Virus record (IMG/VR): IMGVR_UViG_3300030330_000851
Location: 1 to 59,105 of that record
Strand: one strand, 5' to 3'
DNA length: 59,105 nucleotides
Source of the DNA: a virus
Lineage: Duplodnaviria > Caudoviricetes
The position numbers were made by a program, and so were the translations under genes. Shown here piece after piece: positions 5,279 through 49,124 of the stretch (the stretch's first letter is position 1; the number at the start of each line of letters is the position of its first letter). The notes under the pieces are model-generated. The model was given only the letters and a program-made list of their open reading frames with translations. It made no database searches and was not told where the DNA came from.

Positions 5279-5887
5279 ATGAATCTAATAGACGAAATTG
5301 CTTTAACAAAAATACAACAAGTATTTGCGGAAAAGAAATATGCATTCTTTACCAAAGGAAACTATAACTTAAATATAATAGGAGTACGAAGTCCTATTAA
5401 AGTAGCTAACAGCTTTGACGATACTATGCTTGTTATATACAAGAAGTATGACAAGTGGGTTATAAAAGAATATCCTATAACTACAGATGCAGGATTGTAT
5501 TGGCTAGAACATCCAATGAATAAAAAAGGAACAGCACTACTTGTTCCTAATCAGTATCGAAGCACATATAAAATTGATGGGCATGGTAGCACAAGATACG
5601 AAGCCTTGTGTCAGAGGCTTGGTGAGGTGGAGGTTTATCGAGATGATAACAAAGACCAAATCCTTGACTTTGATGATGTAACAAAAGAATGGGGGATGTT
5701 TGGTATAAACATTCATCGCTCTCATCCATATCATGACAGAGATACAGTAGACAAATACAGTGCAGGTTGTCAGGTGTTTCAAAACATACACGATTTCAAG
5801 GAGTTCATGACTCTTTGTAATACCTCATCAAATCTTTACGGTAATAGCTTTACCTATACCCTTCTCTTAGAAAGTGATTTACTATAA
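5279..5887 (+). CDS. Putative endolysin, YkuD/L,D-transpeptidase-like (HxxxSxGC) family
   Basis: LNIIGVR, FDD, GINIHRS..YSAGCQV, FTYTLL. Confidence 0.65.
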   Translation: MNLIDEIALTKIQQVFAEKKYAFFTKGNYNLNIIGVRSPIKVANSFDDTMLVIYKKYDKWVIKEYPITTDAGLYWLEHPMNKKGTALLVPNQYRSTYKIDGHGSTRYEALCQRLGEVEVYRDDNKDQILDFDDVTKEWGMFGINIHRSHPYHDRDTVDKYSAGCQVFQNIHDFKEFMTLCNTSSNLYGNSFTYTLLLESDLL

Positions 5888-5922: not shown

Positions 5923-6147
5923 ATGAAATTAACTAAAGAAGAACTAGGACGAGTTCAAGAATTAAACAATTCGTTCACTCAAGCAAAGTTGGCTCTAGGA
6001 GAGTTAGAACTAAAGCGCCATGGAATGTTACAGGAAATGGATAAACTTAGACAGACCTTTGCTGTTGAGGAAAAGAAATTAATTAGTAAATACGGAGCTG
6101 ATTCTGTTATTAACTTACAAACAGGAGAGGTGACAGAAAAGAAATAA
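5923..6147 (+). CDS. Small coiled-coil protein (tail-fibre chaperone-like)
   Basis: Coiled coil ending KYG..INLQTGE; TATCTTTG at 5899-5906. Confidence 0.6.
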   Translation: MKLTKEELGRVQELNNSFTQAKLALGELELKRHGMLQEMDKLRQTFAVEEKKLISKYGADSVINLQTGEVTEKK

Positions 6148-6148
6148 T

Positions 6149-7156
6149 ATGTCAAAGATAAGTAACACTACTGCCTATCCTACCACTGCACCTGCAGATG
6201 GAGACTTACTCATAGGTACAGATATTAATGATAGCAACGCAACCAAAACATTTACCATTAGTTCAATAGTTGCATTAGCACCTGCTGATACACTATCAGA
6301 AGTATTAACTGCAGGTAATACTGCGACAAACGATATAAACCTTACAGGTAATATAACTTTAACAAACGGAGGAACTCCCGGAGTTGGAAGCATTGTTATG
6401 TCAGGAAATATAATTGCTAACACAGGTACAGTTAGTGCTACAGGATTTCAAGCAAGTTCTTATTTTCAAGGTGCATTATTAAATGTAACTGACATTCAAG
6501 ATGGAGCAGGTAACACCGGAACTGCGGGACAATCTCTTGTAAAGAGTGCAGCTAATGCACTTGAGTGGGGAACACCTACTGTTCCTGCTAACACTTTAGC
6601 TGAGGTATTAGCAGCGGGGAACACTGCCACTAATAACATAAACCTTACCGGGCAGATTAATTTAACGGGAGCTATTATAGCGAGTGGTGACATTTCAGGA
6701 GCAGGCTTAACAGGAACGGTCACAGTTACTACACCTACCTTAGTAGCTACCGACATTCAAGATAATGCAACTCTAAATGGAACAGCAGGACAATATCTTC
6801 GTAAGTCCGGAGCAAACGCCTTAGCGTGGGAAACTGTAGCTGACCCAACATTATCATCCGTTCTTACTACAGGAAATACAGCGACCAATAACATTACTCT
6901 TACCGGAGATATATCATGTACCAATATTACCATTAGCACACAATCACAGGCTCAGAGATATATAGCCACTGATTATGTAGAGGCAGATTACCTTAAAGGA
7001 AGTGGAGCTAATGCTTTAAGACTTCCCAACCTTAATTCATTTGCCGACAATGCAGCAGCAGTAGCAGGAGGTTTATCAGCAGGAGATGTTTATCAGACTG
7101 ATGGAACAGCAGCAGCGCCATTAAACGTAGCGGGTATACTAATGGTGAGACAGTAA
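6149..7156 (+). CDS. Putative tail fibre/fibrous structural protein with three internal repeats
   Basis: TLxxVLxxGNTATNxIxLTG three times; DIQD..GTAGQ.L.KS.ANAL.W twice. Confidence 0.7.
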   Translation: MSKISNTTAYPTTAPADGDLLIGTDINDSNATKTFTISSIVALAPADTLSEVLTAGNTATNDINLTGNITLTNGGTPGVGSIVMSGNIIANTGTVSATGFQASSYFQGALLNVTDIQDGAGNTGTAGQSLVKSAANALEWGTPTVPANTLAEVLAAGNTATNNINLTGQINLTGAIIASGDISGAGLTGTVTVTTPTLVATDIQDNATLNGTAGQYLRKSGANALAWETVADPTLSSVLTTGNTATNNITLTGDISCTNITISTQSQAQRYIATDYVEADYLKGSGANALRLPNLNSFADNAAAVAGGLSAGDVYQTDGTAAAPLNVAGILMVRQ

Positions 7157-27192: not shown

Positions 27193-27711
27193 ATGGATGT
27201 AGTTAAGACAATAGAAAAGGATTTACCCGAACAAATATTATCTTGCGTACATCAACATAGAGGATTGTTGTGGGAAAAGATTGAGTCATTTAGACAGCAA
27301 TTATCTGCGGTGAATGGTTCGGTCTCACATCATACTGAAGAGATGGAAGAAGCATTTCCTACTACACACCACATTGAAAATGGTTTGTATACTCGGGAAG
27401 TGTTAATGCCAAAGGGTTCGTTAGTGGTTAGCTTTATACACAAACAAAACCATCCATCATTTTTTCTTTCAGGCGAGATGTCAATCCTCACGGATGGTGG
27501 AGAGATAAAAAGAATTAAAGCACCAATGAAAGTAATGACAGAAACAGGCACACAAAGAGTAGCGTATATGCACGAAGATTGTGTGTGGGTTTGTGTTTAT
27601 AAAACAGATAAAGAAACTGTTGAGGAAGCAGAGAAAGATGTGTATACATTAGACTATAAAGAGCTACCTCAGCATATAATATTAAACCAAAAACTATTAT
27701 GTCAGGATTAG
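27193..27711 (+). CDS. Cupin-fold protein
   Basis: HH..GLYTRE..PKG..IHK.NH.FFLSG..GTQR..HEDCVW; TATCTTTG at 27177-27184. Confidence 0.7.
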   Translation: MDVVKTIEKDLPEQILSCVHQHRGLLWEKIESFRQQLSAVNGSVSHHTEEMEEAFPTTHHIENGLYTREVLMPKGSLVVSFIHKQNHPSFFLSGEMSILTDGGEIKRIKAPMKVMTETGTQRVAYMHEDCVWVCVYKTDKETVEEAEKDVYTLDYKELPQHIILNQKLLCQD

Positions 27712-28670
27712 CAACAGGAATAGCAAGCGCAGCGATTAGCTTAGGCGGTAGCGTAGGTTCGTTTATACAAGCAGGAAAGCGTAACAAAGATATGAAAGAA
27801 GCGGAAGCTGCAGCGGAGGCTGCAATGTCTGAAGCTAGAAGAAGGACTGAGGTCAACTACATGAAACAACTTGGCATCCAAAAGGAAGCTTACAGGCAGG
27901 CGTATGAGGCAGGTTCAGTGGCTAATAAAGCAATGATAGATGCTGCACAACAGCAAGGGCAACGAGGAGTTGCTGCGGTAGCAGGACAAGTTAGTCAAGC
28001 AGCCTTATCTGATGCACAAAAAGTAAGAGCTACCCAAGAGGGAGAGATGGTTGCACGTCAACAAGCTATTGCTCAAGAGGATAGCAGGCTAAGAGATATT
28101 AATGTTCAATTAGATTTAGAAGAAGTAGCAGGAGCGCAGCAAGCTGCGGAGGATGCACGGATTGCTAAGAACATGGCTATCCAAGAGGGGATAAGTGGTT
28201 TAACTGACGCAGCCATGACAGGTGTAGAGTCTATAGCTTTATTCCCAAGAAAAAAAGGAGGTAAAAAGACAGGACAATATTCTGATAGAATGGTAGAGGT
28301 GCCGGGCTTAACAGGCTCAGACAAAGTAACCTTTAATCCTACAGGTACGGATAGACCTACTATTGGAACTCAAGCAGACACCATGAATGTAGACCCTAAC
28401 ATGGGGTCTTCTCCTATGGAAACTATGGAGACAATTACATTAAAGTCAGGTACTAAACCAAAAACACAAACTCCTGCGAATGTTCAAGTAAAACTAACTG
28501 ACGAACAAATTTTTGAAGGACTTGAAAGGTATAAAACTCCGGCAGAAATAAAACAACTGCAACAAGGATTGGTGGACAGAGGTTTCTCTGTTGGTAGTTC
28601 CGGAATAGATGGGATACTTGGAAAGGACACGAGGTCAGCATATCTTAAATACCGTAGAAGGAACGACTAA
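27699..28670 (+). CDS. Putative ejection/internal virion protein with C-terminal peptidoglycan-binding domain
   Basis: Gly/Ala-rich N-terminus, Ala/Gln coiled coil; IKQLQQGLVDRGF..GIDGILGKDTRSA matches the PG_binding_1 pattern. Confidence 0.7.
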   Translation: MSGLATGIASAAISLGGSVGSFIQAGKRNKDMKEAEAAAEAAMSEARRRTEVNYMKQLGIQKEAYRQAYEAGSVANKAMIDAAQQQGQRGVAAVAGQVSQAALSDAQKVRATQEGEMVARQQAIAQEDSRLRDINVQLDLEEVAGAQQAAEDARIAKNMAIQEGISGLTDAAMTGVESIALFPRKKGGKKTGQYSDRMVEVPGLTGSDKVTFNPTGTDRPTIGTQADTMNVDPNMGSSPMETMETITLKSGTKPKTQTPANVQVKLTDEQIFEGLERYKTPAEIKQLQQGLVDRGFSVGSSGIDGILGKDTRSAYLKYRRRND

Positions 28671-30390: not shown

Positions 30391-33300
30391 ATGAACGAAG
30401 AAGCAATACAAAGGTTTTATGAGCTATTCCAACAAGATGGGTACACAAAAAGTTTGGATGAGTTCAAACAGTTAATGCGTACAAATGAAGAAGCACAAGA
30501 AGTGGCTTATGAATTAGCGTTAGGTGATGGGTATACTAAATACTTTGATGACTTTAAACTTTTAGTGGGTGCGACCATGGATGATAGGCAGCGGGAAGAA
30601 GCAAGAATATATAATGAGAGGTTAGAGATGCAAGCTGCGGAGCAAAAAAAAAAAGAAGATATGGAATCGTTATTGGAGCCTTCTTCTTCGGAGTCACGTA
30701 CGGATGATTCTTTACGAGTATCCTATCCTATGGAAACTACATGGGAAGGAGCTGAAGCTACGGTAGACCCGGCTGCACCTTTACAAGCTACCACCGAAAA
30801 CATGAAACAATTTGCTCAGATTAGAGAGCAAATGAAAGTTGAGAACAGAATAAAAGCTGCACAAAAACAATACCCTGAATTATTTGAAGACTTTGAACTA
30901 TCCTATAGAAACTACGACACAGGGGATGCGAAAAAAGATTTGGTAAGAGACCAAAGGAATTTATTACTAATAGAAATGCCTCCCGAAGAATTGAAAAGAC
31001 TTTCGGATTTGCATAAACAACAAAAATCTATATATAAACAAATTCCAAATGTAAAATATCCTGAAGCAACTAAAGAATACAAGAAATGGCGACAGATTTC
31101 AAACGAGATATCTGAAATAAATAATAAGTATTTAGTAAGATATTCTCCACTTGGAGACGTAGATAAATTTGAACAAGGCAGACTTTCAAATCTTACTCAA
31201 GGAAAAGAACAGTTAGAATATCTTCAATCACGCGCTAGAGATAGAGCAGAAAGAAAAGAAGCAAAGAGAGATAGGTGGAAAGAGTCAGTAGATAAATACA
31301 TAACCGAAGATTTAGCAGGACAAGAAGAAGAAGAGGTTGTTTCTTTTTTAAAGAATCAATTTGGTGACAGTGGTTTTTCCTTTCAACAAGTAGATACTGA
31401 TTTAGGTTTATTTGAGGTAGATATGGGAGATGCAATGAGAGTGGTTGCTCCTAATGGTGCTGATATAGAAATAGATTTAGATACTGTAATGAGTGAGGGA
31501 GAAGAAGCAGAGAAGTTAAAAAACTTTATGATGGCTAACCGACCTGCTAAAGTTTCTAACACGATTCAAAAAAGATATAACAATGAACAAGATGTAAAAG
31601 AAGGAATGGACTATGTGAAGTCATTAAACAATTCTTATGTAAAGTCTTCTCGAAACCTTGATAAATTTCAAGAACTTTACTACAATCAACGCAGACAATG
31701 GGAGGCTCTATCTACCGACCAAAAGAATACTCCTGAAGGAAACGCGTTGTTTAATGAAATGATGAATAGTCAAGAAGGGTATAACACTGCCAAAAAAAAT
31801 GTAGAGTTAGATAAAAAGAAACTTGCAAAAGAATCTCAGGAAGTAGACTATTTAGCAGGGAAATATCTTGCGTATAAAAACGACCCGGATAGAGGCAGTT
31901 ATGCAGGCGCTTTATATAACTCGGCTCTTGGATTAGTAGACCATACCGCGGGGGCTACAGTCTCTATAAGTAATTTAATCGCAGACAAAGTGGTTAAGCC
32001 TATGATAAAAAAAAATCTTCCGGGTTTAACCAAAGAAGAACTTGAAGGTATAGATAATAATGAGTATTCAAAAGAACTACTTGAAAAAGCTCGAGGCGTA
32101 ACAGATGCTATTAAAGCAAAAGACCAAGAAGCTTTTGCTGAAGAGTGGAAAAAGTCAACTCCCGGTATGGTGCTTACCTCGGTAGCAGAGTTTCTTCCTG
32201 CTATGGCAGCAGGTCCACTCTCTATACCTCTCATTGGTCTATCATCTATGGATATGTTTGCTCAAGAAATGGAGTCTATAGAAGCATTTGATAATGTGGA
32301 TGATGGGGAGAAATTAGCATTAGCTGCAGCACTTGCAATACCAATGGCGTTGTTGGAACGAATTGGTTTTACCAATGCTGCTATAAAAAGTTCACCTAAA
32401 ATTTTAAACTACTTAATGGCTAAGGGTGTAATGGGTGCGGAGAAAGCAGGGATGAAGATGAGTCATAAAGCCATAACAAAAGCAACAATAGAGGAAATTG
32501 AAAACAGTGGGTTAAGAGGACTAGCTAAAATGGGAGCGGCAGGATTAGCTGAGTTTGAGACAGGACTTGCACAGGGGATGGTTGAAGGAGGAACTAAGTG
32601 GGCGTATGATTTTTTAAAGGACAAAAAAATGTATGATGCTCCTGACCTTACCACCGCTAAAGGATGGGGTGATTGGGCAATTAACTCTTTAGAGAGTGGG
32701 TACTATGAAATGTTGGGAGGTTTGGTCATGGGTGTTCCTGTGGGTCTAGCCTCAGCAGTTACAAAAAAAGACTTCACGCAGATTGATGATGCGTCATGGG
32801 AGTTGTTTAAACAAATTAAAGACGACCCAACTCTTTTGAATTTAAGTGAGCAAGATTTTATACAGAAGATTGCTTTAGGCAAGGCAAGTAAAGCGGATGC
32901 AATAAGAGTGAGAGATAACTTTCGCGAAGCCGTTAACATATATAATAAAATACCTGAGCCTGACACTTATTCAACAAACCAACAGAAACAAATCATGGGG
33001 CTTCTATTAAGGAAGGCACAGTTGGAGGCTAGAAAAAAAGGCAAAGACCCAACCTTAGCGTTGAAAGAAGATGCGGAGATTGATAGCATAAATAAAAAGT
33101 TAGCTGCCTTATCAGAAAGTGCGGGAGATGCTGCGATAGATGAGAGGAGAATGAAAGAAAACATTAAGGAAGAGTTTAGTAATTTAAAAGAGGATGATGA
33201 AATAGAATTGGTTGTAGAGAAACTTGAAGATATCCCTGAACAATATAGGGAGACAGCGACGAAGCAACAAACAGGAGACGCAAAGATAGAAGTTAATTCT

Positions 33301-36300
33301 TTGGTGGCAGGTTTGCCTATAGGTAAAACTTCTTCTTCAGTGTCCGGAGATTTTTACACATATAAATTAACAGGAAAACAAATAAACGATGCCATTCAAG
33401 AGCAAAGCACAACTGACATGGATGCGCCTCAATCAACCACAGATGTACAAGAAGTGGAGGTCGGAACATCCGCGGCAGGACCTGAAGTCACTGCCACAGA
33501 AGAAATCAAAGTTACGGACGAGGAGAAAGCAGGGTTAAATAATCTTGGCTTTACAGACGAGATGATAGAGGTGATGACGCCTGAAGATGTTGACATAGCT
33601 AAAACATATACTGACCCTGCTCAAGCGACAGAGATGAAGCAGAAGTATGAGGAAGATATGCAGCGACTTAAAGAGTTACAAGCAGAAGGAACAGAAGGAG
33701 GGAGAGTAGAGGCAGTTACGGCTGTCGAAGGAGATGCTGTGGTCAACAACAGGGGGCAGGTTACACTTACTAAAAATCAGGAGAAGCTTGTTAAGAGAGC
33801 TAAGAATGTAGCTAAGTCTTTAAAAGGGTTAATACCTAAATTGAAAATAGTAACTCATGCTACCAATGCCGATTACTTTGAGGCTATAAATGAAAAAGAA
33901 ACAGATAAGAATAGATTTGAAAGGGGGGAGTTTGATTCAAAAACAAATACCATTCATATCAACTTACAAAATGCTGATGGGTCTACGGTATTTCATGAGG
34001 GCGTCCATGCTTTGTTATATAGTAAGTTCAGCAATAGTGTTCTTCAAAAAGTAATAAGCGATGACCTTATTGCTAAACTTGTAAGAGTAATACCTAAAGG
34101 AAGTTTCACTATACAACGTAGGCTTTTACTACCTAATGGAGAGTCGGCGTTTGAAACAGTAGACATGCATCAATATTTAAAAGATGTTGCGTCGGACTAT
34201 AAGAAAGCAAACGTTAAAGAGATATCAGAGGAGCAGTTAGCTGAGGTGTTTGGTGCATTGGCTTCACAATACAACTCAATGACGGTTAGTCAGAAGTCAG
34301 TTATTACAAAGTTTTTCGCTAAAGTTTATAAGTTTTTTGGAGGGAAAGGAGATATCAATTCATTTACTAATGACGATGTGGCTGTTGTAAACCTGTTAAA
34401 CTCTTTAGCATTTAAGATGCGTACAGGAGAGGAGATTATAGAGGATGATGTGACTGTGTTAAAGGACGCTGAACAGAGAGCGATAGAAGGTACGGCTGAA
34501 ACAACTACAGAGAAGTCACCTAAGACTAAGACTAAAGGGAGACCAAAACAAACAGTTGAGGAATTGCTAAAAGAAAGAAGCGAGTTGGAAGAATATCTAA
34601 TGATGCACCCCAAGAAGCGTTATATAGCAAAGAAAGAAAGAATAAAAATAAATAAAAGATTACAAGCTATAGACAACTTGTTACTAAAAAGAGACAAAGA
34701 AGATAGACAAAAAACCAAGACTAAAGGGAAGTTGATGAAGGAAGGTAAGTCTCATATCTTTGTTAAGAAATACCCTGACTCTAAAACAGGATTCAAGCTT
34801 ACAATTAAAGAAGTATTGCCCAATAATTTAATTAGGTTTGAGAAAAATAAAAACATAAACAATACCAACAACTTATTTAGAAAAGACAATGAGGGTAACT
34901 ATGTAGAAGTATTGCCGGGTAATAAGACAGGTCAGGTAATAGGATTCAAACCTGCTAAAACTAAAGCAGCACCTGTTGAAACAACTACTGAGGCGGTAGA
35001 AGAAGGTGTTAACGCTGAGATAGAATTGGAAATAGCACAGGTAGAATTTGAGATAGAAGAGGCTGAACAACTCATAGAGGAAATTCAAATAGAGATTAAC
35101 AATATAAAATCTAACTTCAAGGAGGATGTTGACAAGCTAAAAGCGAGGGGCAAGAAGTTTATGAAGACAGACGAATATGCTGAGGAGTTAGAAGAACTAA
35201 AGTATAGTAGAGATGGAAACCTTGAGTCATACAATGATGATTTAAAAGAGGCAAGGTCTGACAAAAGAAAGTTAGAAACGAAAAAGAAAAAATTAGAAGC
35301 GAAGTTAACCCCCACCTCACGTAAGCAGGTAGCTGCAAAGGAGGTAGATATGGTGTTTGATATTGAAGCAAATAAAAATGTATTAGATAAGGTTGGTAGT
35401 AAAAAAGATTATGTGGAATATTTAAAATCCACATTAACATTTCCTCAGATATTTGTTCATAATACTTTAAGACCTTTTGAAGAATTTGATAGTGACCTTA
35501 CAACCACAGGGACAAAAGACTTAGGTAAAGGCTTGTATGTTTCCGATATTAAAAATTCTAATCAATGGAAAGCTTATCAATCCCTTGAAGGGCGGAAAGG
35601 TAATACAATATTAAAAGAGAACATAACTTCTTTGGCTTCACAAGTAGGGTTGACTGAAGAATATTTGAAAAGTTTATACACCAAAAATTTTCAAGAAAAG
35701 AAAAAACAAATTCAAAATAAACTCCGTAAAGAAAATCCTAATCTATCTGAACAGCAGTTAAAAAATGAAACCGCTATGCTCCTAATGGAAGATGCTGCTA
35801 TGAGCTACGATAAAATTGGTATCATTGAAAATGCACTTAAAGAAAATGATGCAAAGATAAAGGGAGATACAAAACAACTCAGTAGGTTAAAAGAATTATT
35901 AAGTAAATATAAAAAAGTAAAAGATGTAGAAATTCTTGATGAACCTACACAGCAATACTATGGATACATTGGTGAGCAAGCTCCTGTTCAAGTGGATGAT
36001 ATGTATAGAGATGAAGGAGAAACGGATGCTACCTTTGTTATGAAGGGAGAAGAAGATAATGTTAGTGAGGCAATATTCAAAGACAAAAAAGATTACATTA
36101 GACTTGGAAGTAAAGAAGATGTAAAAAGGTTTAAAGAGTTTATGTCTACCCCCACCTCACGGAAGCAGATAGCTGCAAAGGAGGATATTATTTTTGATGG
36201 TAAAAAAATATCAAAGGAGGATTTAGGAAAACGTTATAAGGAAATCCGAAGTGATAATTATTTAATACCAATAAAACAAATAGGAAATTACATTACATAT

Positions 36301-39300
36301 AATGGAGATAACTCTCAAATAAAAGAGGTAGTTGACATTATAAATGAAAGGGTAAGTCCAAAAAAAAAGACAGGAAATTATAGCGAAAGATTTATAAATT
36401 CTTTGCAAAGATTTGCTTTTGACAGTGGGACACCAAGAAAGTTTGCGTCTGCTATTAGAAAAAGTTTTGACCCTAACTTTACGTCTGCCACTCAGAAAGA
36501 AAACATACGATACGGAAAATTTAAAAACTTTCAAGACCGGCTTGATTACTTTGAAATAACCAAAACTTATACTCCTACTCTTACCACACAGCAAGTAGAT
36601 AATGATTATAATAAAAAGGTAGAAGCATTTGCTAAAGAATATGGATATAAGATACCGGAGTCTTACAACTATGACAAGAAAGCACCCACCTCACGTAAGC
36701 AGGTAGCTGCTAAGGAGTCAGTCGCTCCTATGAAAGTCAATGAGGAGTTCAGTAAGATGACACCTGCACAGAAAAGAAAACAGATTGGTGGTAGGTTTGG
36801 TAATCTATCTTTAGAACTTAGGAAAGGTTTGTTTAGAGCAAAGCAGGCATACAAGTATGCTGATGAATATGAGAGACTTAGAAAGAGCAACAAGATTAGA
36901 GACATAGAATTGTTTGAGAAGAAGTATCAACAGAATCCTCCCATGACTGAACAAAAAATATTTCTTAACTCAGGAGGATGGTATCGTGGTGTAGACGGTG
37001 AGTATAGATATGAGATACCTGATGGTAAGTTAGTTAAAGGAACGTACCAAGAGTTTACAAAACAGTCGCTGTCTGAGCCGGAGAATAGAGAAGCAAGACT
37101 TGATGAGATATATATAGCTCCTGAACTTTATAAAACCTATCCACAAATCGCAGACATTATGGTGCAGTTTGAACCTATGGTAACAGTAAAGAAAAGAGGC
37201 AAGGTTGAAAAAAACACTGCAACAGTAGGTTACTTTAGTAACCGGAACCAACTTATTGTAATTAATACTAATGAGTCAGACTTTGCTGAAGCTAATCCAA
37301 CGCAACAAAGGAATCTTATTTTTTACACTCTCCTTCATGAAATACAACATGCTATACAACTCATAGAAGGATTTGCATTAGGCGCAAGTGATAAAGAAAG
37401 TAAAGCAGGTCGTGGTAAAAGAGTTACAGAAAAGTGGAATCAAGGTAAAGAAGATTTAACTAAAGAAAGAATTTTTCAGTCAAGATATCACAAGGACTTG
37501 AGAAAAAAGTATGAAACCTTTAGAATAAATAAGGAGTTTGTAGGTCACTTTATAAGGGTGCTAAATAAACTTAGTGCTAAGCGTTATAATGAAGAGTTTT
37601 TTAAATTATTAAAAAGTGGTAACAAAGGAAAAGACTTGGTCTCTATATTAAAAACCCTTTATCTAGAAGGAGGAGAGAAAATATATAAGGAGTTAGCTGC
37701 TGATGCGAGGTACTTTCATAAGGAAGTAAGCGGCAGAAAGATAAAAATGACTCAAGAATCTCTTGGAAACTTCCTTGATAAAATGTTAGACTTTTCTGCG
37801 TTAAACGGGATGACAGAGGCTACAGATATTGAAGATGTTAGTAGACGTCTTATTAAAATGTTAGAACTATATGATTCTTTTAATATGTACTCACGAACAT
37901 ATGGAGAAATAGAATCAAGGAATGTAGAGGAACGAGCAAGAAAGAAAAAAGAATTAGCTGTTTTAAAATCTAAGATTGACAAGGTTGAAAGACTTGGAAT
38001 GAAAAAAGGTGTAGATGAATTAGAAAAGATAGAGAGAATAGAACAGCTAGAAGAGCAGTTGTATAGAGAGTTACCTACTGTACATGAAGACTCGCAAGGT
38101 TTAATAGAAGGTGTTAACGAGGAACTACAGGGTCCATATATAATGAAAACCCAACCGAGGGGGAGGATGAAAAAAGTTGCGCCTAAAAAACAGACACAGC
38201 TTACTACAACAGAAGAAAATGTTCAGGATATAGAAAGGATTCAAAGCATTAGTAGAAAACAATTACCTCCCAAGACAGCGTCACTTGAAGATATTGTGGC
38301 ATGGGGTAGAGAGAGAGGTGAAAAAGATTCTGTGATTAGAATGTTATTAAAGAGCCGTGGGTTCGGTACACTGTCAGAGATTGATGACGCCATGAGAAAA
38401 ACAATGGAGATGAAGGCTATGCCGACTGAACTCGCAAGTATATTAGGTGGTATAAAGAAAGGAGAGGAATTGTTTAAAGATGTCATGACTAAGTTTTATG
38501 ACGCCACCATGGAAACCAAGGAAGTAACAGGAGAAAGTAAAGAGAGAATAGCTAAAGCTAAAAAAATAATGTTAAACAATCCTCAAGAGTATGGTAATGA
38601 AAAGGATGGAGTGTTTATTAAAAAAGATAAAGAGGGTAATGTTATCAGGAAACAGACCCTTGACATAACTAAAGCAAAGGGTGGTGTTAAAATAATAACA
38701 GCTACTGAAGTATTAGGTGTACCACGAACATCTATGGAAACGGTATTTACAAAGTCATTAGGAAAGAGAAGAGAGATTCTTCAAGACTTGTTAAAGAAAA
38801 ACCCCGTATACAAAAACCTAAGTGAGTATGAAAAGGCTACAGTTGAGTCAGCTTTAGATAGAGTATTAAACACAAGGGCTAACCCTACTGTGCAACAAAG
38901 AATAGAAGCAGCACGAAGAGTTAAGCGAGCCGTCGAAAAGAATCAAAAGGATGTGCAAGAGTTGCGTAACCGATTAACCGCACTGATAAGAGAGTCTCTT
39001 CCAAAGGTTATGAAAAACGCAGAGTCTACTAAAAACCTAAACAGATTACTTAGAATTATTTCTAAAGGAACTAAAGATACTGTTCTAACAGATACCGAAA
39101 AGATATTAAAAGAAATAGAAACAATAAATAAAAAGGAAGCCACTACAATTAAAGATAAGATTAGAAAAATTATAAAAGCAAAGTCACGTAGCGACTACCA
39201 AAAAATTGGTGTTGATGCTACAACACATCAGTTCTTTCAAGCTTTAAACAGGATGTTGAAAATCGTAGAGGTTAATGCTAAGGATGTAGACTTATTAGAG

Positions 39301-42012
39301 AAGACGTTACGAACAGAGAGAGATGCTATAGATGATGCAGGTATTGATTATGTTATAAGAAAGATTAATAAGAATGAAAAGCTAACACCTGAAGAAACAA
39401 ACTTGTACTATAGAAACGAGGCTTATGAAATGTTGAAAGACTTTAATGCACTTAACCTTGATGAGGTACAAGGATTGTTTGAAGAGATTTCTCTACTCAA
39501 GAAAGAAGGTATAGAGCAATTGAAATCTAATCTTGCTGCTCGTACCAAAAGAAATCAAAAGACTGAGGAGGAAGCTATCAAACAAATCAAAGAGGACTAC
39601 TCCTACCTTGTTAATGAGGATGGAACTATATTCTCTTCTACTGAAGTGAGCAATAATCAAGCTGATATATTTAAAAGATGGAGGGAATCTAAGGGTTTTA
39701 AGTCTATTAAAGATATGTTTAGTCAGTGGGCTAAGGGTAGAAAGGGCAACATGGTTATTAATAATATGGGTAGTCTTGAAACCATGACCAATGCTCTTGA
39801 CAATCCTGTAAAGGGAAACAATTTTTTTACAGAAAACTTTACCAATAGACTAAAAGATTTACGTGAAAGATTTTTAGATGGTAAACAAAAAGAAACTAAA
39901 AAGATTGACGAGATACTTAATAGCATCTCAGGAATAAAATCTAAGACACGTCCTTTTAAGCGTCCTTATGGTGTGTTGATAGATATGTTAGCTCAACCAA
40001 AGATAACTGTTACAAACGCTAAAGGAAAGACTGAAAAGCTTACTCGTGACCAAGCACTAAGAATATATGCGCTATGGCAGAACCCTGTGCAAAGACAGAA
40101 GCTTGAGTTCGGTCATGAGAAAGGCGAGCCTACCAAAGGAACTTTTTATAATCAGGAGACTATTAATGAAATAGAAAGTAAGTTAGGCAAAGACTTAATA
40201 GAGTTTGCGGATAAAGTTATAGCTTACTTAAACACGGAGTATTATGATAGCATCAATCAAGTATACCGACAGGTAAACAATGCCAACTTAAAGCGAGTTG
40301 AAAATTACTTTCCTACTCGTACTGTAAACGATTCGTTTGAACGAATGAAACTTGAGGAAGCCGGGGACTTTGGTGCCATCTTTCAAGCGGTAGCTCCTGC
40401 GCTTCACGAACGTACCGATACTACAGGTCGTATAAAAATAACCGAAGACGGTGTGGCATTAGGGTTTACCTCAGTGCTTAGTGAGCATATCGAGTCCATG
40501 GAAAGGTTCAAAGCATATGCCGAAGGTGTAAAAACCATGCGGGATATACTAAGAATGAAGTCAGTAAACTCCGTGCTTGAGGCTACACGTACTAAACAAA
40601 TGATTAAAGATAGGATAATGGCAGCAGTCAATCCATCTTTTTTACTTAGAAGAAAAGGTAAGCAAACCTTTAGTAAAGTATTTAGTAACTTTACTTCATG
40701 GGCATTAGGGTTTAAGTTATGGCAAGTACCAAAGCAAGCCTCTTCTTTCATTACTTCTTTTGCTGATTACGATTCAGGAATAAAAAGCTATGATGCTTTA
40801 GGTGTAAGCAAAGCGGCAGGGGATATGATAATGTATTCCATTGACCTGTTAACTACCGTAGCTAACCTAAGCACGGACTTGCTACCCGACAAACAACGAT
40901 TAGCTATAAGCAAAAAACTTGGTATTAATATTCCTGAAGGACCAATACATCAAGCCTACCGTGTGTCCGCTACATTCAGAGATAGGATTCAAGAGGGAAT
41001 GCAAGGAGATGTATGGGGTCTTGAGTCGGGGTCAGCCATTAAGAAACGTACAGGTGGTGTGGTGCCAAAAAAATTAGTAAGACTACAGCGTGGTTATAAG
41101 GATTTAAAAACATTAGGTAATGCGTTCACTATGTTTGGTGATGCTCTTGGAGTAATGGGTTACATGGTTAACTATAGAAGAGATTTAAAGAGAGGCATGA
41201 GTCAAGCAGAAGCTTTAAGAAAGTTTAATAAGTATGAATCCACTCAGCAAACAAGGTCTACTGTAGAAAAGAATAGGTTACAACTTGAAGGTTCTGATTT
41301 CACAAGAGTGTTTACCATGTTTGCAAGCACAATATTTTTACAGCAAAATCAAATAGCACAATCCTCATCTAATATTTTACAAGCATTTGCTAATGGTAAA
41401 GTTCCTAGACAAAAAGATATTCGTGCATTGTACTTGAATCTTGGGATAGCTAATGTTGCCTTTATATTTATGCAACAAATATTTAAGTATGCCTTTGGAG
41501 ATGATGAGGAGGTAGAAGAAGTAACAAACAAAATGGAGGATGTAATGTATGGCATCAATAGTCTTGCTGAGTTGCCTCTAATGGGACCGAGTATAATTGA
41601 AGCAAAAAAATATTTCATTGATGAAAAGATAAGAGGAAAGAAAAGAAAGTATGGGGAAAAAGTTCCTGAAATATCTAACCCCCTAAACCAACTTGTTCTG
41701 AAAGGTATAAGAGAATATGACAAGGCAGGTTCAAAGGAAGCAATTAAAGGATTAGCTGAAGTTATAATAGGAATAAACACAGACCCTATAATAGGGTTTA
41801 AGAATAAGGTGATAGGAGACAGCGACTTTACAGAAATGGATAAAGACTTCTATGATATGTTAGGTATTCCTAAGACAGCCCGACCTAAAAAGAAAAAAGC
41901 GGATGACTCTCTTGATAAGTTTGATAATTTTGAGTCGTTTGATAAGAGTGATAAATTTAAAACTTTTAAACAAGAGCAAAAAGAAAAAGATAAAGAGGAT
42001 GAGAATTGGTAA
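30391..42012 (+). CDS. Giant polyvalent virion/ejection protein, 3873 aa (two zincin metallopeptidases, ART-like module, LPD23-like domain)
   Basis: FHEGVH..EEQLAE (about 33994); VHNT..FEEFD..GKGLYVSD (about 35452-35547); GWYRGVDGEYRYEIPD (about 36973); LLHEIQHAIQ..EGF..YGEIESRNVE (about 37336-37930). Confidence 0.8.
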   Translation: MNEEAIQRFYELFQQDGYTKSLDEFKQLMRTNEEAQEVAYELALGDGYTKYFDDFKLLVGATMDDRQREEARIYNERLEMQAAEQKKKEDMESLLEPSSSESRTDDSLRVSYPMETTWEGAEATVDPAAPLQATTENMKQFAQIREQMKVENRIKAAQKQYPELFEDFELSYRNYDTGDAKKDLVRDQRNLLLIEMPPEELKRLSDLHKQQKSIYKQIPNVKYPEATKEYKKWRQISNEISEINNKYLVRYSPLGDVDKFEQGRLSNLTQGKEQLEYLQSRARDRAERKEAKRDRWKESVDKYITEDLAGQEEEEVVSFLKNQFGDSGFSFQQVDTDLGLFEVDMGDAMRVVAPNGADIEIDLDTVMSEGEEAEKLKNFMMANRPAKVSNTIQKRYNNEQDVKEGMDYVKSLNNSYVKSSRNLDKFQELYYNQRRQWEALSTDQKNTPEGNALFNEMMNSQEGYNTAKKNVELDKKKLAKESQEVDYLAGKYLAYKNDPDRGSYAGALYNSALGLVDHTAGATVSISNLIADKVVKPMIKKNLPGLTKEELEGIDNNEYSKELLEKARGVTDAIKAKDQEAFAEEWKKSTPGMVLTSVAEFLPAMAAGPLSIPLIGLSSMDMFAQEMESIEAFDNVDDGEKLALAAALAIPMALLERIGFTNAAIKSSPKILNYLMAKGVMGAEKAGMKMSHKAITKATIEEIENSGLRGLAKMGAAGLAEFETGLAQGMVEGGTKWAYDFLKDKKMYDAPDLTTAKGWGDWAINSLESGYYEMLGGLVMGVPVGLASAVTKKDFTQIDDASWELFKQIKDDPTLLNLSEQDFIQKIALGKASKADAIRVRDNFREAVNIYNKIPEPDTYSTNQQKQIMGLLLRKAQLEARKKGKDPTLALKEDAEIDSINKKLAALSESAGDAAIDERRMKENIKEEFSNLKEDDEIELVVEKLEDIPEQYRETATKQQTGDAKIEVNSLVAGLPIGKTSSSVSGDFYTYKLTGKQINDAIQEQSTTDMDAPQSTTDVQEVEVGTSAAGPEVTATEEIKVTDEEKAGLNNLGFTDEMIEVMTPEDVDIAKTYTDPAQATEMKQKYEEDMQRLKELQAEGTEGGRVEAVTAVEGDAVVNNRGQVTLTKNQEKLVKRAKNVAKSLKGLIPKLKIVTHATNADYFEAINEKETDKNRFERGEFDSKTNTIHINLQNADGSTVFHEGVHALLYSKFSNSVLQKVISDDLIAKLVRVIPKGSFTIQRRLLLPNGESAFETVDMHQYLKDVASDYKKANVKEISEEQLAEVFGALASQYNSMTVSQKSVITKFFAKVYKFFGGKGDINSFTNDDVAVVNLLNSLAFKMRTGEEIIEDDVTVLKDAEQRAIEGTAETTTEKSPKTKTKGRPKQTVEELLKERSELEEYLMMHPKKRYIAKKERIKINKRLQAIDNLLLKRDKEDRQKTKTKGKLMKEGKSHIFVKKYPDSKTGFKLTIKEVLPNNLIRFEKNKNINNTNNLFRKDNEGNYVEVLPGNKTGQVIGFKPAKTKAAPVETTTEAVEEGVNAEIELEIAQVEFEIEEAEQLIEEIQIEINNIKSNFKEDVDKLKARGKKFMKTDEYAEELEELKYSRDGNLESYNDDLKEARSDKRKLETKKKKLEAKLTPTSRKQVAAKEVDMVFDIEANKNVLDKVGSKKDYVEYLKSTLTFPQIFVHNTLRPFEEFDSDLTTTGTKDLGKGLYVSDIKNSNQWKAYQSLEGRKGNTILKENITSLASQVGLTEEYLKSLYTKNFQEKKKQIQNKLRKENPNLSEQQLKNETAMLLMEDAAMSYDKIGIIENALKENDAKIKGDTKQLSRLKELLSKYKKVKDVEILDEPTQQYYGYIGEQAPVQVDDMYRDEGETDATFVMKGEEDNVSEAIFKDKKDYIRLGSKEDVKRFKEFMSTPTSRKQIAAKEDIIFDGKKISKEDLGKRYKEIRSDNYLIPIKQIGNYITYNGDNSQIKEVVDIINERVSPKKKTGNYSERFINSLQRFAFDSGTPRKFASAIRKSFDPNFTSATQKENIRYGKFKNFQDRLDYFEITKTYTPTLTTQQVDNDYNKKVEAFAKEYGYKIPESYNYDKKAPTSRKQVAAKESVAPMKVNEEFSKMTPAQKRKQIGGRFGNLSLELRKGLFRAKQAYKYADEYERLRKSNKIRDIELFEKKYQQNPPMTEQKIFLNSGGWYRGVDGEYRYEIPDGKLVKGTYQEFTKQSLSEPENREARLDEIYIAPELYKTYPQIADIMVQFEPMVTVKKRGKVEKNTATVGYFSNRNQLIVINTNESDFAEANPTQQRNLIFYTLLHEIQHAIQLIEGFALGASDKESKAGRGKRVTEKWNQGKEDLTKERIFQSRYHKDLRKKYETFRINKEFVGHFIRVLNKLSAKRYNEEFFKLLKSGNKGKDLVSILKTLYLEGGEKIYKELAADARYFHKEVSGRKIKMTQESLGNFLDKMLDFSALNGMTEATDIEDVSRRLIKMLELYDSFNMYSRTYGEIESRNVEERARKKKELAVLKSKIDKVERLGMKKGVDELEKIERIEQLEEQLYRELPTVHEDSQGLIEGVNEELQGPYIMKTQPRGRMKKVAPKKQTQLTTTEENVQDIERIQSISRKQLPPKTASLEDIVAWGRERGEKDSVIRMLLKSRGFGTLSEIDDAMRKTMEMKAMPTELASILGGIKKGEELFKDVMTKFYDATMETKEVTGESKERIAKAKKIMLNNPQEYGNEKDGVFIKKDKEGNVIRKQTLDITKAKGGVKIITATEVLGVPRTSMETVFTKSLGKRREILQDLLKKNPVYKNLSEYEKATVESALDRVLNTRANPTVQQRIEAARRVKRAVEKNQKDVQELRNRLTALIRESLPKVMKNAESTKNLNRLLRIISKGTKDTVLTDTEKILKEIETINKKEATTIKDKIRKIIKAKSRSDYQKIGVDATTHQFFQALNRMLKIVEVNAKDVDLLEKTLRTERDAIDDAGIDYVIRKINKNEKLTPEETNLYYRNEAYEMLKDFNALNLDEVQGLFEEISLLKKEGIEQLKSNLAARTKRNQKTEEEAIKQIKEDYSYLVNEDGTIFSSTEVSNNQADIFKRWRESKGFKSIKDMFSQWAKGRKGNMVINNMGSLETMTNALDNPVKGNNFFTENFTNRLKDLRERFLDGKQKETKKIDEILNSISGIKSKTRPFKRPYGVLIDMLAQPKITVTNAKGKTEKLTRDQALRIYALWQNPVQRQKLEFGHEKGEPTKGTFYNQETINEIESKLGKDLIEFADKVIAYLNTEYYDSINQVYRQVNNANLKRVENYFPTRTVNDSFERMKLEEAGDFGAIFQAVAPALHERTDTTGRIKITEDGVALGFTSVLSEHIESMERFKAYAEGVKTMRDILRMKSVNSVLEATRTKQMIKDRIMAAVNPSFLLRRKGKQTFSKVFSNFTSWALGFKLWQVPKQASSFITSFADYDSGIKSYDALGVSKAAGDMIMYSIDLLTTVANLSTDLLPDKQRLAISKKLGINIPEGPIHQAYRVSATFRDRIQEGMQGDVWGLESGSAIKKRTGGVVPKKLVRLQRGYKDLKTLGNAFTMFGDALGVMGYMVNYRRDLKRGMSQAEALRKFNKYESTQQTRSTVEKNRLQLEGSDFTRVFTMFASTIFLQQNQIAQSSSNILQAFANGKVPRQKDIRALYLNLGIANVAFIFMQQIFKYAFGDDEEVEEVTNKMEDVMYGINSLAELPLMGPSIIEAKKYFIDEKIRGKKRKYGEKVPEISNPLNQLVLKGIREYDKAGSKEAIKGLAEVIIGINTDPIIGFKNKVIGDSDFTEMDKDFYDMLGIPKTARPKKKKADDSLDKFDNFESFDKSDKFKTFKQEQKEKDKEDENW
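35308..36717 (+). repeat. Three in-frame 36-nt direct repeats (35308-35343, 36148-36183, 36682-36717) encoding (T/A)PTSRKQ(V/I)AAKE
   Basis: ACCCCCACCTCACGTAAGCAGGTAGCTGCAAAGGAG; copies 2 and 3 match copy 1 at 34/36 and 33/36. Confidence 0.95.
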
Positions 42013-47857: not shown

Positions 47858-48595
47858 CTATAGTATATCTTCTATTATAAATGAATTGATGTCTTCACTT
47901 GGATTGTCCCCAAAGAATCTATTATAAACCTCGATAGCTTTATCCACCTTCAGCATTCCATTATGCACGAACTCTTCTGATGGTTCAAACACCCCAAGCA
48001 TCTTTGTGTTCTTATCTATCACATAGAATACTAATGGTCTACCAAATAACTCTTGGTATATATAACACTGACTATCGTAGTTGTACTTACGTGCCGACCA
48101 TTTGAAGTCGTTGATGTTTGATGTAGTCTTTAAATCGATGATACAATCCTCACATAATATATCAGCCTTGCCTTTCCATTGCATGCCTTTAATCATTCCT
48201 ATTGCAGGTTTCTCATACTCATTGGCATCCTCTGTCATCTTATCAAACATAAAGATGTTTCCTCTAATGGTTTGAACCAAGTCTAATATATTGTTACACT
48301 CTTTATTAAGGAGGGCAACTTCCACCCCATGCTCTGCGATAAATTCCTTGTATGCTTTTGTGTTTCGAGAGGCTACATCCACACACAAAGTATCTGCTGC
48401 CTTTTCAGGCTCGAGCAATAGCTGATGGAAGTACCTTCCCTCTGCAAAGTTTTTGTTGTCGGGTCTGCTAATTCTAAACTCTTTTGGATTAGATAGTAGT
48501 GTACCTATGTCTGAGTTGCTTAGGTATTGCTTACCAAAGTCTCCATAGTAATTGCTATCGTCTTCTAACTTCTTTAATATGTCCTCTGTTTTCAT
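47858..48595 (-). CDS. RecE/DUF3799-like PD-(D/E)XK exonuclease
   Basis: LSNSDI, GRYFH.LLLEP, KGKADI, IIDLKTT, YDSQCYIY. Confidence 0.85.
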   Translation of the reverse strand: MKTEDILKKLEDDSNYYGDFGKQYLSNSDIGTLLSNPKEFRISRPDNKNFAEGRYFHQLLLEPEKAADTLCVDVASRNTKAYKEFIAEHGVEVALLNKECNNILDLVQTIRGNIFMFDKMTEDANEYEKPAIGMIKGMQWKGKADILCEDCIIDLKTTSNINDFKWSARKYNYDSQCYIYQELFGRPLVFYVIDKNTKMLGVFEPSEEFVHNGMLKVDKAIEVYNRFFGDNPSEDINSFIIEDIL

Positions 48596-48596
48596 G

Positions 48597-49124
48597 CTAT
48601 TTAATTTTGAATTTCTTTTTCAACTCTGTCTTGTGCTTAGTGGTTACATCATACTTACGTTGTAACTCTTTAACTATAGCAGTCAAACCTTTCTCCTTGT
48701 TTACTGCTACATACTTTAGAACCTTATCCCAATTATCACTACCTATTTCAAGTTCGATAGTTGTTTTCTTTGGCGCAGGTTTCTTATCTTGATTAGCTAT
48801 GGCATTGCTTACCTCATCGGCTGAAGCTACTGACGTATCTAATCCTATACCGAAGTTAGCTAATGCTCTACCCCAAGCTGAGGTCTCGCAGTTCTCTACG
48901 TAACTTGTCTTGTTAATAAAGGTACTACCCTTTTCTTCTTCAGCTAATCCTGTAGCCAATGCTCTACCTGTTTTGTCTGAGATGGTAGCTTTGATTAGTA
49001 TGCTTGTCTCTGTTTTGTCTAACACCTCACTCACTAATGAATGGTCTTTGTAGTTAGCTCTAAAATGTTTCAGTCTTTCGTTAACCTCAACGTATTCTTT
49101 TCCTTTAATGTTTATTGTTTTCAT
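48597..49124 (-). CDS. Putative single-strand annealing protein (Rad52/Sak-like)
   Basis: KGKEYVEVNERL, ATGLAEE, ENCETSAWGRAL..GIG; adjacent to the exonuclease. Confidence 0.6.
   Translation of the reverse strand: MKTINIKGKEYVEVNERLKHFRANYKDHSLVSEVLDKTETSILIKATISDKTGRALATGLAEEEKGSTFINKTSYVENCETSAWGRALANFGIGLDTSVASADEVSNAIANQDKKPAPKKTTIELEIGSDNWDKVLKYVAVNKEKGLTAIVKELQRKYDVTTKHKTELKKKFKIK

Follow-up and report, generated by a model that had tools for sequence, protein, structure and literature searches.

A 36-nucleotide in-frame repeat marks the places where domain content changes in the giant polyvalent-type protein of a marine podovirus

Introduction

Giant polyvalent proteins are regarded as the toolkit of a phage's first strike, and we know of no established cause of the rapid change in their sets of domains. 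The question is posed in concrete form by one gene of a marine, lytic-type podovirus whose complete genome is IMG/VR virus record IMGVR_UViG_3300030330_000851 (all 59,105 bp of it were analysed and are referred to below as the window). The gene is a giant open reading frame (ORF) of 3873 amino acids (aa). It contains three near-identical copies of a 36-nt sequence, each of them in frame, and two mutually unrelated domains, designated modules A and B, occupy the two intervals between copies. How did these domains come to be stacked in a single reading frame, and does the repeat have a part in it? The original prediction for this locus was that the repeat is a recombinational landing pad that lets effector domains be added, swapped or deleted in frame, and that it may also be a cleavage site for the protein's own peptidases. 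As argued below, the repeat marks, and probably mediates, in-frame domain gain, loss and swapping, a reading to which we assign a probability of about three in four. The landmarks of the locus, all on the + strand, are:

30391..42012, +, giant ORF (3873 aa), last in the structural gene block; polyvalent-type virion protein
35008..35307, +, segment U, just before repeat copy 1; coiled-coil-like as judged by eye from the sequence, not by computation
35308..35343, +, repeat copy 1 (TPTSRKQVAAKE), in frame within the giant ORF
35344..36147, +, module A, 268 aa, GC 0.308; possibly a divergent ART-PolyVal-like domain with a helical insert; homologues P0147, P0148, P0149, P0151 and P0152
36148..36183, +, repeat copy 2 (TPTSRKQIAAKE), in frame within the giant ORF
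36184..36681, +, module B, 166 aa, GC 0.301; a discrete domain without functional assignment; homologues P0150 and P0153
36682..36717, +, repeat copy 3 (APTSRKQVAAKE), in frame within the giant ORF; the copy common to all relatives
36682..36795, +, island of about 114 nt, conserved at synonymous sites in comparison among lineages; copy 3 and the first 26 codons of the next module
36718..38064, +, LPD23/second zincin module (HEIQH at 37336-37350), conserved in all relatives

Domain content changes at the repeat

Relatives of the giant gene were found with a degenerate pattern of the linker peptide, which yielded one other contig in viral_contigs, two in metagenome_contigs and none in genome_contigs; protein searches added two lineages of full length, P0003 and P0004, as well as P0154-P0158, which are shorter pieces. 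The close relatives of the protein originate from marine metagenomes. All five full-length members of its own 90% cluster, from JGI/IMG, ENA and Logan assemblies, have the three-copy layout. The DNA lineages G001/L004, L010 and L011 and the full-length proteins P0003 and P0004 have exactly one copy each, and this single copy always lies directly before ...VAPMKVNEEFSKMTP.QKRKQ.GGR..., the start of the LPD23/zincin module.

What stands upstream of that resident copy varies from case to case. The window has module B there; G001, L010 and L011 each have a different module; P0154 and P0158 have the segment U of the window; P0157 has yet another sequence; and the distant P0155, whose motif reads TTSRKQVAADG, has an upstream sequence of its own. 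At least eight different upstream contexts end at the identical base. Whether relatives change their domain content exactly at the SRKQ repeats had been proposed as a check, and alignment of the related genes and proteins shows that they do.

Comparison of the DNA places these changes at base resolution. Between the window and G001, homology restarts 5 nt before the core of copy 3. G001 and L011 are 96.7% identical over 1216 nt beginning about 10 nt before the repeat, unrelated for 550/950 nt just upstream of it, and 78% identical further upstream. Between L010 and G001 identity is 93.5% over a stretch of 462 nt whose end coincides exactly with the start of the G001 repeat, and only 75.9% after the repeat. 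G001 is therefore L010-like to the left of the repeat and L011-like to its right, the signature of a crossover at the repeat. A junction lacking both cassettes exists as well: P0154 (1888 aa) and P0158 (116 aa), both from ENA assemblies, read ...KKKLEAKLTPTSRKQVAAKESVAPMKV..., and in P0154 a single repeat connects segment U directly with the LPD23 module (window residues 1546-1651, which take in copy 1 and the last part of segment U, are 90.6% identical to P0154 residues 1-106).

Wider searches added little to this set. A megablast search of the whole gene against phages gave no match; a related-locus search of viral contigs with residues 1500-2500 found none, and with alignment A3 only G001 again; the search for shorter homologues of residues 1640-2110 gave no match among 8000 scored candidates. 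The giant gene of G001 (the contig of L004/L007) spans both ends of its contig (59521-60792 and 3-9629); the record is rated 65% complete and is probably a circularly permuted, near-complete genome.

The variable regions of the relatives contain a second class of in-frame linker, acidic and of the type T-T-E-E-A-P-A-E-E-V-V, which is also repeated at the DNA level (in L004, for example, as two 40-nt copies at 85% identity) and shares a GAAGAAGCACC start with the junction before the SRKQ repeat. This suggests that several linker types may serve as joints. The regions in question are:

L004:3090-3700 and L004:4112-4138, acidic linkers
L010:6135-6380, acidic linkers
L011:1458-1800, acidic linkers

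Also upstream of the SRKQ repeat, L010 has a 99-nt direct repeat (5670-5768 and 6135-6233, 84% identity, spacing 465) that marks a tandem pair of related modules joined by ...VSEEASAEEV... and not by the SRKQ unit.

The copies are related as DNA

The 36-nt unit encodes [TA]PTSRKQ[VI]AAKE, and its three copies in the giant ORF start 840 nt (copies 1-2) and 534 nt (copies 2-3) apart. When its 33-nt core is searched for with up to three mismatches, three sites are found in the window and none in 100 dinucleotide-preserving shuffles. The identity first noted, 33-34 positions in 36, is right for copy 1 against copy 3 (33/36) and copy 2 (34/36), and too high for copies 2 and 3, which agree at 31/36. 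The longest exact stretch shared by copies 1 and 3 is 26 nt, that shared by copies 2 and 3 is 11 nt. With a GC content of 0.58 the core falls in the top 1.4% of the gene's windows, and it is built largely of minority codons that are the same in the copies (CCC 12%, CGT 15%, ACC 21%, TCA 23%).

The lineages tell the same story at synonymous sites. Over the first 38 codons counted from the repeat, the same codon is used at 32-33 of 34 conserved residues; over the next 350 or so codons, the proportion is 0.64-0.76. The difference is significant in five of six lineage pairs (Fisher p 2e-5 to 2e-3), the sixth pair, G001-L011, being near-identical throughout. The identity of the copies is one of DNA, beyond that of the peptide, and they share a common DNA ancestry.

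This evidence bears directly on an explanation that does without any promotion of exchange. The peptide might simply be the conserved N-terminal edge, or flexible linker, of the LPD23 module; illegitimate joins would then occur anywhere, those at the edge would survive, and the extra copies would have been carried along passively with the inserts, with no role beyond accidental deletions between direct repeats. The resident copy does always lie at the edge of the conserved module, the ordinary Pro/Thr/Glu-rich linkers of the module B homologues align with the first residues of the repeat, the acidic linkers of the relatives share its GAAGAAGCACC start, and the TSRKQV core is kept at the protein level in a relative of 43% identity. 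Yet the same minority codons recur in the copies, and the lineages show conservation at synonymous sites; at least eight upstream contexts end at one and the same base; the joints of the variants described below fall within letters common to both sides (26 and 11 of them, respectively); and passive carriage leaves it unexplained that both inserted modules end with the same 36 nt. We consider this explanation quite unlikely.

The last letters of the repeat invite another reading. They are AAGGAG(G), a perfect Shine-Dalgarno (SD) sequence, with an in-frame ATG 5 nt after copy 1 and 12 nt after copy 3 and, in three of four downstream contexts, a Met no more than 6 residues past the repeat, so that the modules might be made as separate, nested products from internal translation starts. 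An SD-like motif is found at only 3 of 28 ORF starts, however, the leaders being A/T-rich as expected of a Bacteroidota host; copy 2 is followed by no in-frame ATG, and module B does not contain a single Met. An internal ribosome-binding site is rejected on these grounds, and internal initiation is, in our judgement, very improbable. Nor does the repeat region have the marks of an RNA element, a candidate that is likewise rejected: its fold z-score is -0.11 and Rfam gives no match at E <= 1.

Degenerate RKQ linkers had been pointed out further along the protein. Two such motifs, KRKQIG (36769) and SISRKQL (38245), do exist and are found at the same positions in the relatives. Each is a lone peptide motif and not a repeat of DNA, and no change of cassette was observed at either; the second RKQ site (38245) is rejected as a cassette joint, no breakpoint having been found at that position. 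Length varies on a small scale near this second site: P0004 carries 69 additional aa, inserted about 90 residues ahead of its NRKQLPS motif, and in P0155 a gap of 22 residues falls between two of its RKQ motifs, RRKQVESK and RKQLP.

Modules A and B

The sizes first proposed for the two modules, 280 and 178 aa, are those of the repeat periods; net of the repeat, the modules comprise 268 and 166 aa. They are unrelated to each other, as had been claimed: comparison of A with B by BLASTP gives an E value of 0.82, and their sets of homologues are disjoint. Simple tandem duplication, in which the inter-repeat segments would be homologous to each other, is rejected for the same reason. A search of 1.84 billion representative proteins found five that match A only, one that matches B only and one that matches from the end of A through B. 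In these other proteins A and B are discrete domains with the same borders.

Both modules are also richer in A/T than their flanks, again as first noted, and no other parts of the gene are as low in GC. In equal-sized windows the median GC content of the gene is 0.36, and the values of 0.308 for A and 0.301 for B place them in the lowest 0.3% and 0%, respectively; GC at third codon positions is 0.22-0.23 in the modules vs 0.30. A and B are compositionally foreign to the gene in which they lie.

The description of module A as ART-like stands as a lead. Its homologues share invariant H, Y and S-D positions, three of them have sub-threshold matches to PF18760 (E 1.4e-4, 0.0098 and 0.11), and the Atlas clusters nearest to module A, which likewise serve as a lead only, carry ART-PolyVal (scores 0.88 and 0.87). 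The module's own AlphaFold2 (AF2) model is poor (predicted local distance difference test, pLDDT, 53), with only the helical insert confident, and was not used for a fold search. The model of module B has a pLDDT of 65; for this module there was no Pfam match, no usable Atlas match and no Foldseek match in the PDB at E <= 0.001. Structure prediction module by module, which had been suggested as a check, thus produced models, with no fold match for B and a model of A too poor to use. In P0150 and P0153 the module B domain sits between Pro/Thr/Glu-rich linkers.

Two of the homologues deserve separate mention. P0148, a fragment of 103 aa and 44% identical to module A, is preceded by SPTKRKIFGLDEG, which aligns with TPTSRKQVAAKEV; the link between modules of the A type and a PT.RK leader may be older than the DNA repeats. 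In P0150 (322 aa) module B is followed by a segment that resembles the coiled-coil-like segment before copy 1 in the window. The order is the reverse of that in the window, and this is further evidence of a shuffling of pieces.

Variants in natural populations

Twenty public sequencing runs share words with positions 34800-37300, and the Logan contigs of four of them (X3-X6) were compared with that stretch. None of the four is a probable source sample; parts of the stretch left uncovered there carry no evidence. Deletions of 840 and 534 nt had been named as the ones to look for. A contig of X3 (1291 nt, depth 8.8) joins 36150 to 36685, a skip of 534 nt that corresponds to module B, with 11 letters fitting both sides. 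A contig of X4 (363 nt, depth 4.4) joins 35310 to 36685 and so leaves out the 1374 nt of both cassettes; the letters that fit either side number 26, and its flanks of 172 and 191 nt have 3 and 1 differences. The joints of both skips lie inside the repeat. Sister populations carry A without B, or neither.

Replacement is seen as well. In another X3 contig 271 other letters take the place of 319 nt before copy 1, and the match resumes at 35312. An X4 contig (depth 29) that runs from copy 2 to copy 3 has a diverged core, with 395 letters instead of 383; a contig of X5 (77 nt) again has a copy-1-type left flank on copy 3; and among loose contig ends there is other sequence directly before 36680 and directly after 36715.

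Might the triple repeat, or the deletion forms, be errors of assembly? The variants do come from short-read assemblies, and contigs tend to end at the repeats. Against this stand the three-copy form in all five full-length cluster members, from three sources, and the cassette-less junction found also in two ENA-assembled proteins. Logan assemblies use 31-mers, and the longest exact match between copies is 26 letters, so that misjoining through a shared word seems excluded. We regard assembly error as scarcely credible.

A proposed recombination mechanism

How might the exchanges come about? On the favoured reading, the 36-nt unit is an in-frame inter-domain linker whose DNA is common to several positions in the gene and to the gene pools of related phages, and it marks where a hypervariable stretch of the giant virion protein ends on the right. 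Recombining within or at this short, GC-rich identity, between copies in one genome or between co-infecting relatives, would join different modules and keep the frame; the agent would probably be a relaxed, short-homology annealing recombination of the phage's own type. The outcome in the window would be two foreign modules, A and B, both richer in AT and each with a linker copy of its own behind it. As for the direction of events, A and B are low in GC and the single-copy layout is widespread; both facts favour an ancestor with one copy into which the modules were inserted, and losses may have followed.

A candidate for part of such a recombination system is encoded in the window and might be connected with cassette exchange:

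47858..48595, -, gene for a PD-(D/E)XK exonuclease (RecE/exonuclease VIII-like; phrog_412, E 8e-28; Pfam DUF3799, PDDEXK-like, E 4.7e-18)

Adjoining it is a 175-aa ORF (phrog_11717, a family without assignment, and no Pfam match), the pair spanning 47858-49124 on the - strand; this ORF could be the missing annealase. According to De Paepe et al. (2014, PMC3945230), the minimal pairing segment is 23-27 bp for Red-beta-type recombinases and 31-34 bp for RecA. The 26 bp of exact identity between copies 1 and 3 lies inside the range quoted for Red-beta. No member of an integrase family was found among 20 large ORFs compared with PHROGs or among 8 compared with Pfam, the smaller ORFs having been only partly scanned.

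Several points weigh against recombination through the repeat. The 11 nt shared by copies 2 and 3 are below the quoted pairing minimum, so that the 534-nt variant may be an older form with A only, rather than a recent deletion by way of that pair. The 840-nt skip, loss of A alone, does not occur among the contigs of runs X3-X6, and the variants from the runs come in all cases from assembled contigs, not from raw reads, at depths of 4-9. No annealase was identified in the phage by Pfam scan, and no donor with the arrangement linker-A-linker was found; the motif is carried by only four to six lineages. Finally, breakpoints at the edges of domains are also expected from selection on random illegitimate joins. 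We nevertheless favour the reading of the repeat as the place and probable means of exchange: breakpoints coincide with it and the joints of the skips lie inside it. Selection of the repeat as a landing pad is a further step that we infer.

The repeat as a possible cleavage site

The second part of the original proposal is compatible with the first. PTSRKQ[VI]AAKE might be a site at which one of the protein's two HExxH peptidase domains, or a head protease, cuts, making the giant protein a polyprotein that releases A, B and the C-terminal part. Iyer et al. (2017, PMC5512222) propose that zincin-like metallopeptidases process polyvalent proteins. The giant protein has two HExxH motifs, the TSRKQV core persists at the protein level in the relative of 43% identity, further RKQ[VIL] motifs occupy conserved positions, and the linker residues have pLDDT values below 50 in both AF2 models, which are weak overall. 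On the other side, one of the loose-end variants is without the AAKE part, and conservation of a peptide does not by itself explain identity of codons. A set of 117 distant LPD23 polyvalent proteins shows no enrichment of the motif (6 seen vs 5.4 expected), a count by which the SRKQ motif is also rejected as a general feature of LPD23 polyvalent proteins. We think cleavage unlikely.

A combination of the two functions is conceivable, if speculative and rather improbable: a cassette joint whose DNA is a portable, GC-rich patch of homology for loading, stacking and dropping effector domains and whose peptide is a zincin cut site.

Comparison with known systems

One close parallel is bacterial. 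In cdiA a short sequence encoding the VENN motif, and likewise the core/tip boundary of Rhs, is the place where homology stops and variable modules begin; silent orphan cdiA-CT/cdiI modules lie downstream, module homology spans from one copy of the motif to the next, and deletion between copies loads a different module on to the main gene. The mechanism proposed there is recombination between the conserved sequences that encode the motif (Poole et al., 2011, PMC3150448). In the giant gene, too, a conserved motif-encoding sequence stands where the homology of alleles stops abruptly. In contrast to CdiA, with its terminal toxin and silent downstream orphans, the phage modules are in series in one uninterrupted virion ORF; immunity genes are absent; the variable part is on the upstream side of the resident copy, where in CdiA it is downstream; and the setting is a lytic-type phage genome rather than a bacterial chromosome. 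Since all copies are inside one open frame and there are no silent orphan modules with immunity genes, the system works like CdiA VENN/Rhs and is not a member of that class.

Among phages, the T-even gp38 adhesins have glycine-rich motifs (GRMs) that separate hypervariable segments (Trojet et al., 2011, PMC3157838, citing Tetart et al.). There also, short conserved motifs surround variable segments of a structural protein, and the segments are exchanged in phage crosses. The GRMs of gp38, however, are in a folded core, the variable pieces are loops of one domain and deletions are non-viable, whereas in the giant protein it is the presence of entire, unrelated domains of 166-268 aa that varies, and that protein is of the internal or effector type and not an adhesin.

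The polyvalent proteins of Iyer et al. (2017, PMC5512222) resemble the giant protein in their size and multi-domain make-up, in LPD23, in zincin-like HExxH motifs, in mosaic architecture and possibly in an ART-PolyVal-like module. That paper floats 'recombinational variability' for one system; its main text does not contain the word 'linker', and none of the six places where 'recombination', 'mosaic' or 'shuffl' appears describes a repeat-bracketed, in-frame cassette. What differs in the present case is that the junction element and its population variants are defined at base resolution. Phage Rad52-like recombinases, with their relaxed recombination (De Paepe et al., 2014, PMC3945230), offer a mechanism for exchange on short or diverged homology; here only the exonuclease partner is recognisable, and the system is known from sequence alone. 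An integron-like, site-specific cassette system would have a dedicated integrase or recombinase and structured attachment sites; the repeat region shows no unusual folding.

In the literature as covered by titles and the beginnings of abstracts, outside subscription journals, there is no description of such an element in a phage virion protein. What sets this case apart is the stacking of whole unrelated domains in one open frame of a phage polyvalent protein, with natural variants that differ by exactly one or two cassettes.

The phage and its giant protein

The record that constitutes the window has direct terminal repeats at its ends. Its portal protein is 73% identical to that of one uncultured Caudoviricetes record and 45-51% identical to portals of podoviruses of Maribacter, Flavobacterium and Cellulophaga. 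These relatives point to a host of the Bacteroidota type, and the A/T-rich leaders and scarce SD-like motifs already mentioned fit such a host.

Genes for terminase, portal and virion proteins lie upstream of the giant ORF, and the ORFs that follow it are on the opposite strand, with nothing orphan-like among them. The position of the gene at the end of this structural block suggests that the giant protein may be packaged in the virion and ejected into the host with the DNA. Its Pfam match to LPD23 is sub-threshold (20.6 bits vs a cut-off of 27); residues 2098-2560 match 278 proteins at E <= 0.001, and PF18838 (LPD23) is present in most of 120 matches listed. It is thus a large, multi-domain phage protein homologous to LPD23-bearing polyvalent proteins. 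As to zincin and effector domains in one polypeptide, two HExxH motifs are present, and ART-PolyVal appears only in the sub-threshold matches of the module A homologues and the Atlas lead. The first of the HExxH motifs is:

33994..34008, +, HEGVH, a zincin-type motif read from the translation

The region around it (aa 1131-1354) matches a 'structural protein' of Flavobacterium phages. Further upstream, the ORF at 27699-28670 has an N-terminal part of a virion structural protein family and a C-terminal part of an endolysin family; its product is probably a virion-borne lysin.

Significance

With the junction element resolved to the base, and with natural populations that are exactly one or two cassettes apart, the turnover of cassettes in giant polyvalent proteins becomes a directly testable question. 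If the repeat were a joint at the levels of both DNA and peptide, marine flavophages would carry, in the giant protein that they eject, an array of effectors that resembles an integron but has no integrase, and each arriving cassette would automatically be released in the host as a separate effector. At the level of domains, the locus offers a clean case of an old idea, that short conserved linkers mediate the modular exchange of phages.

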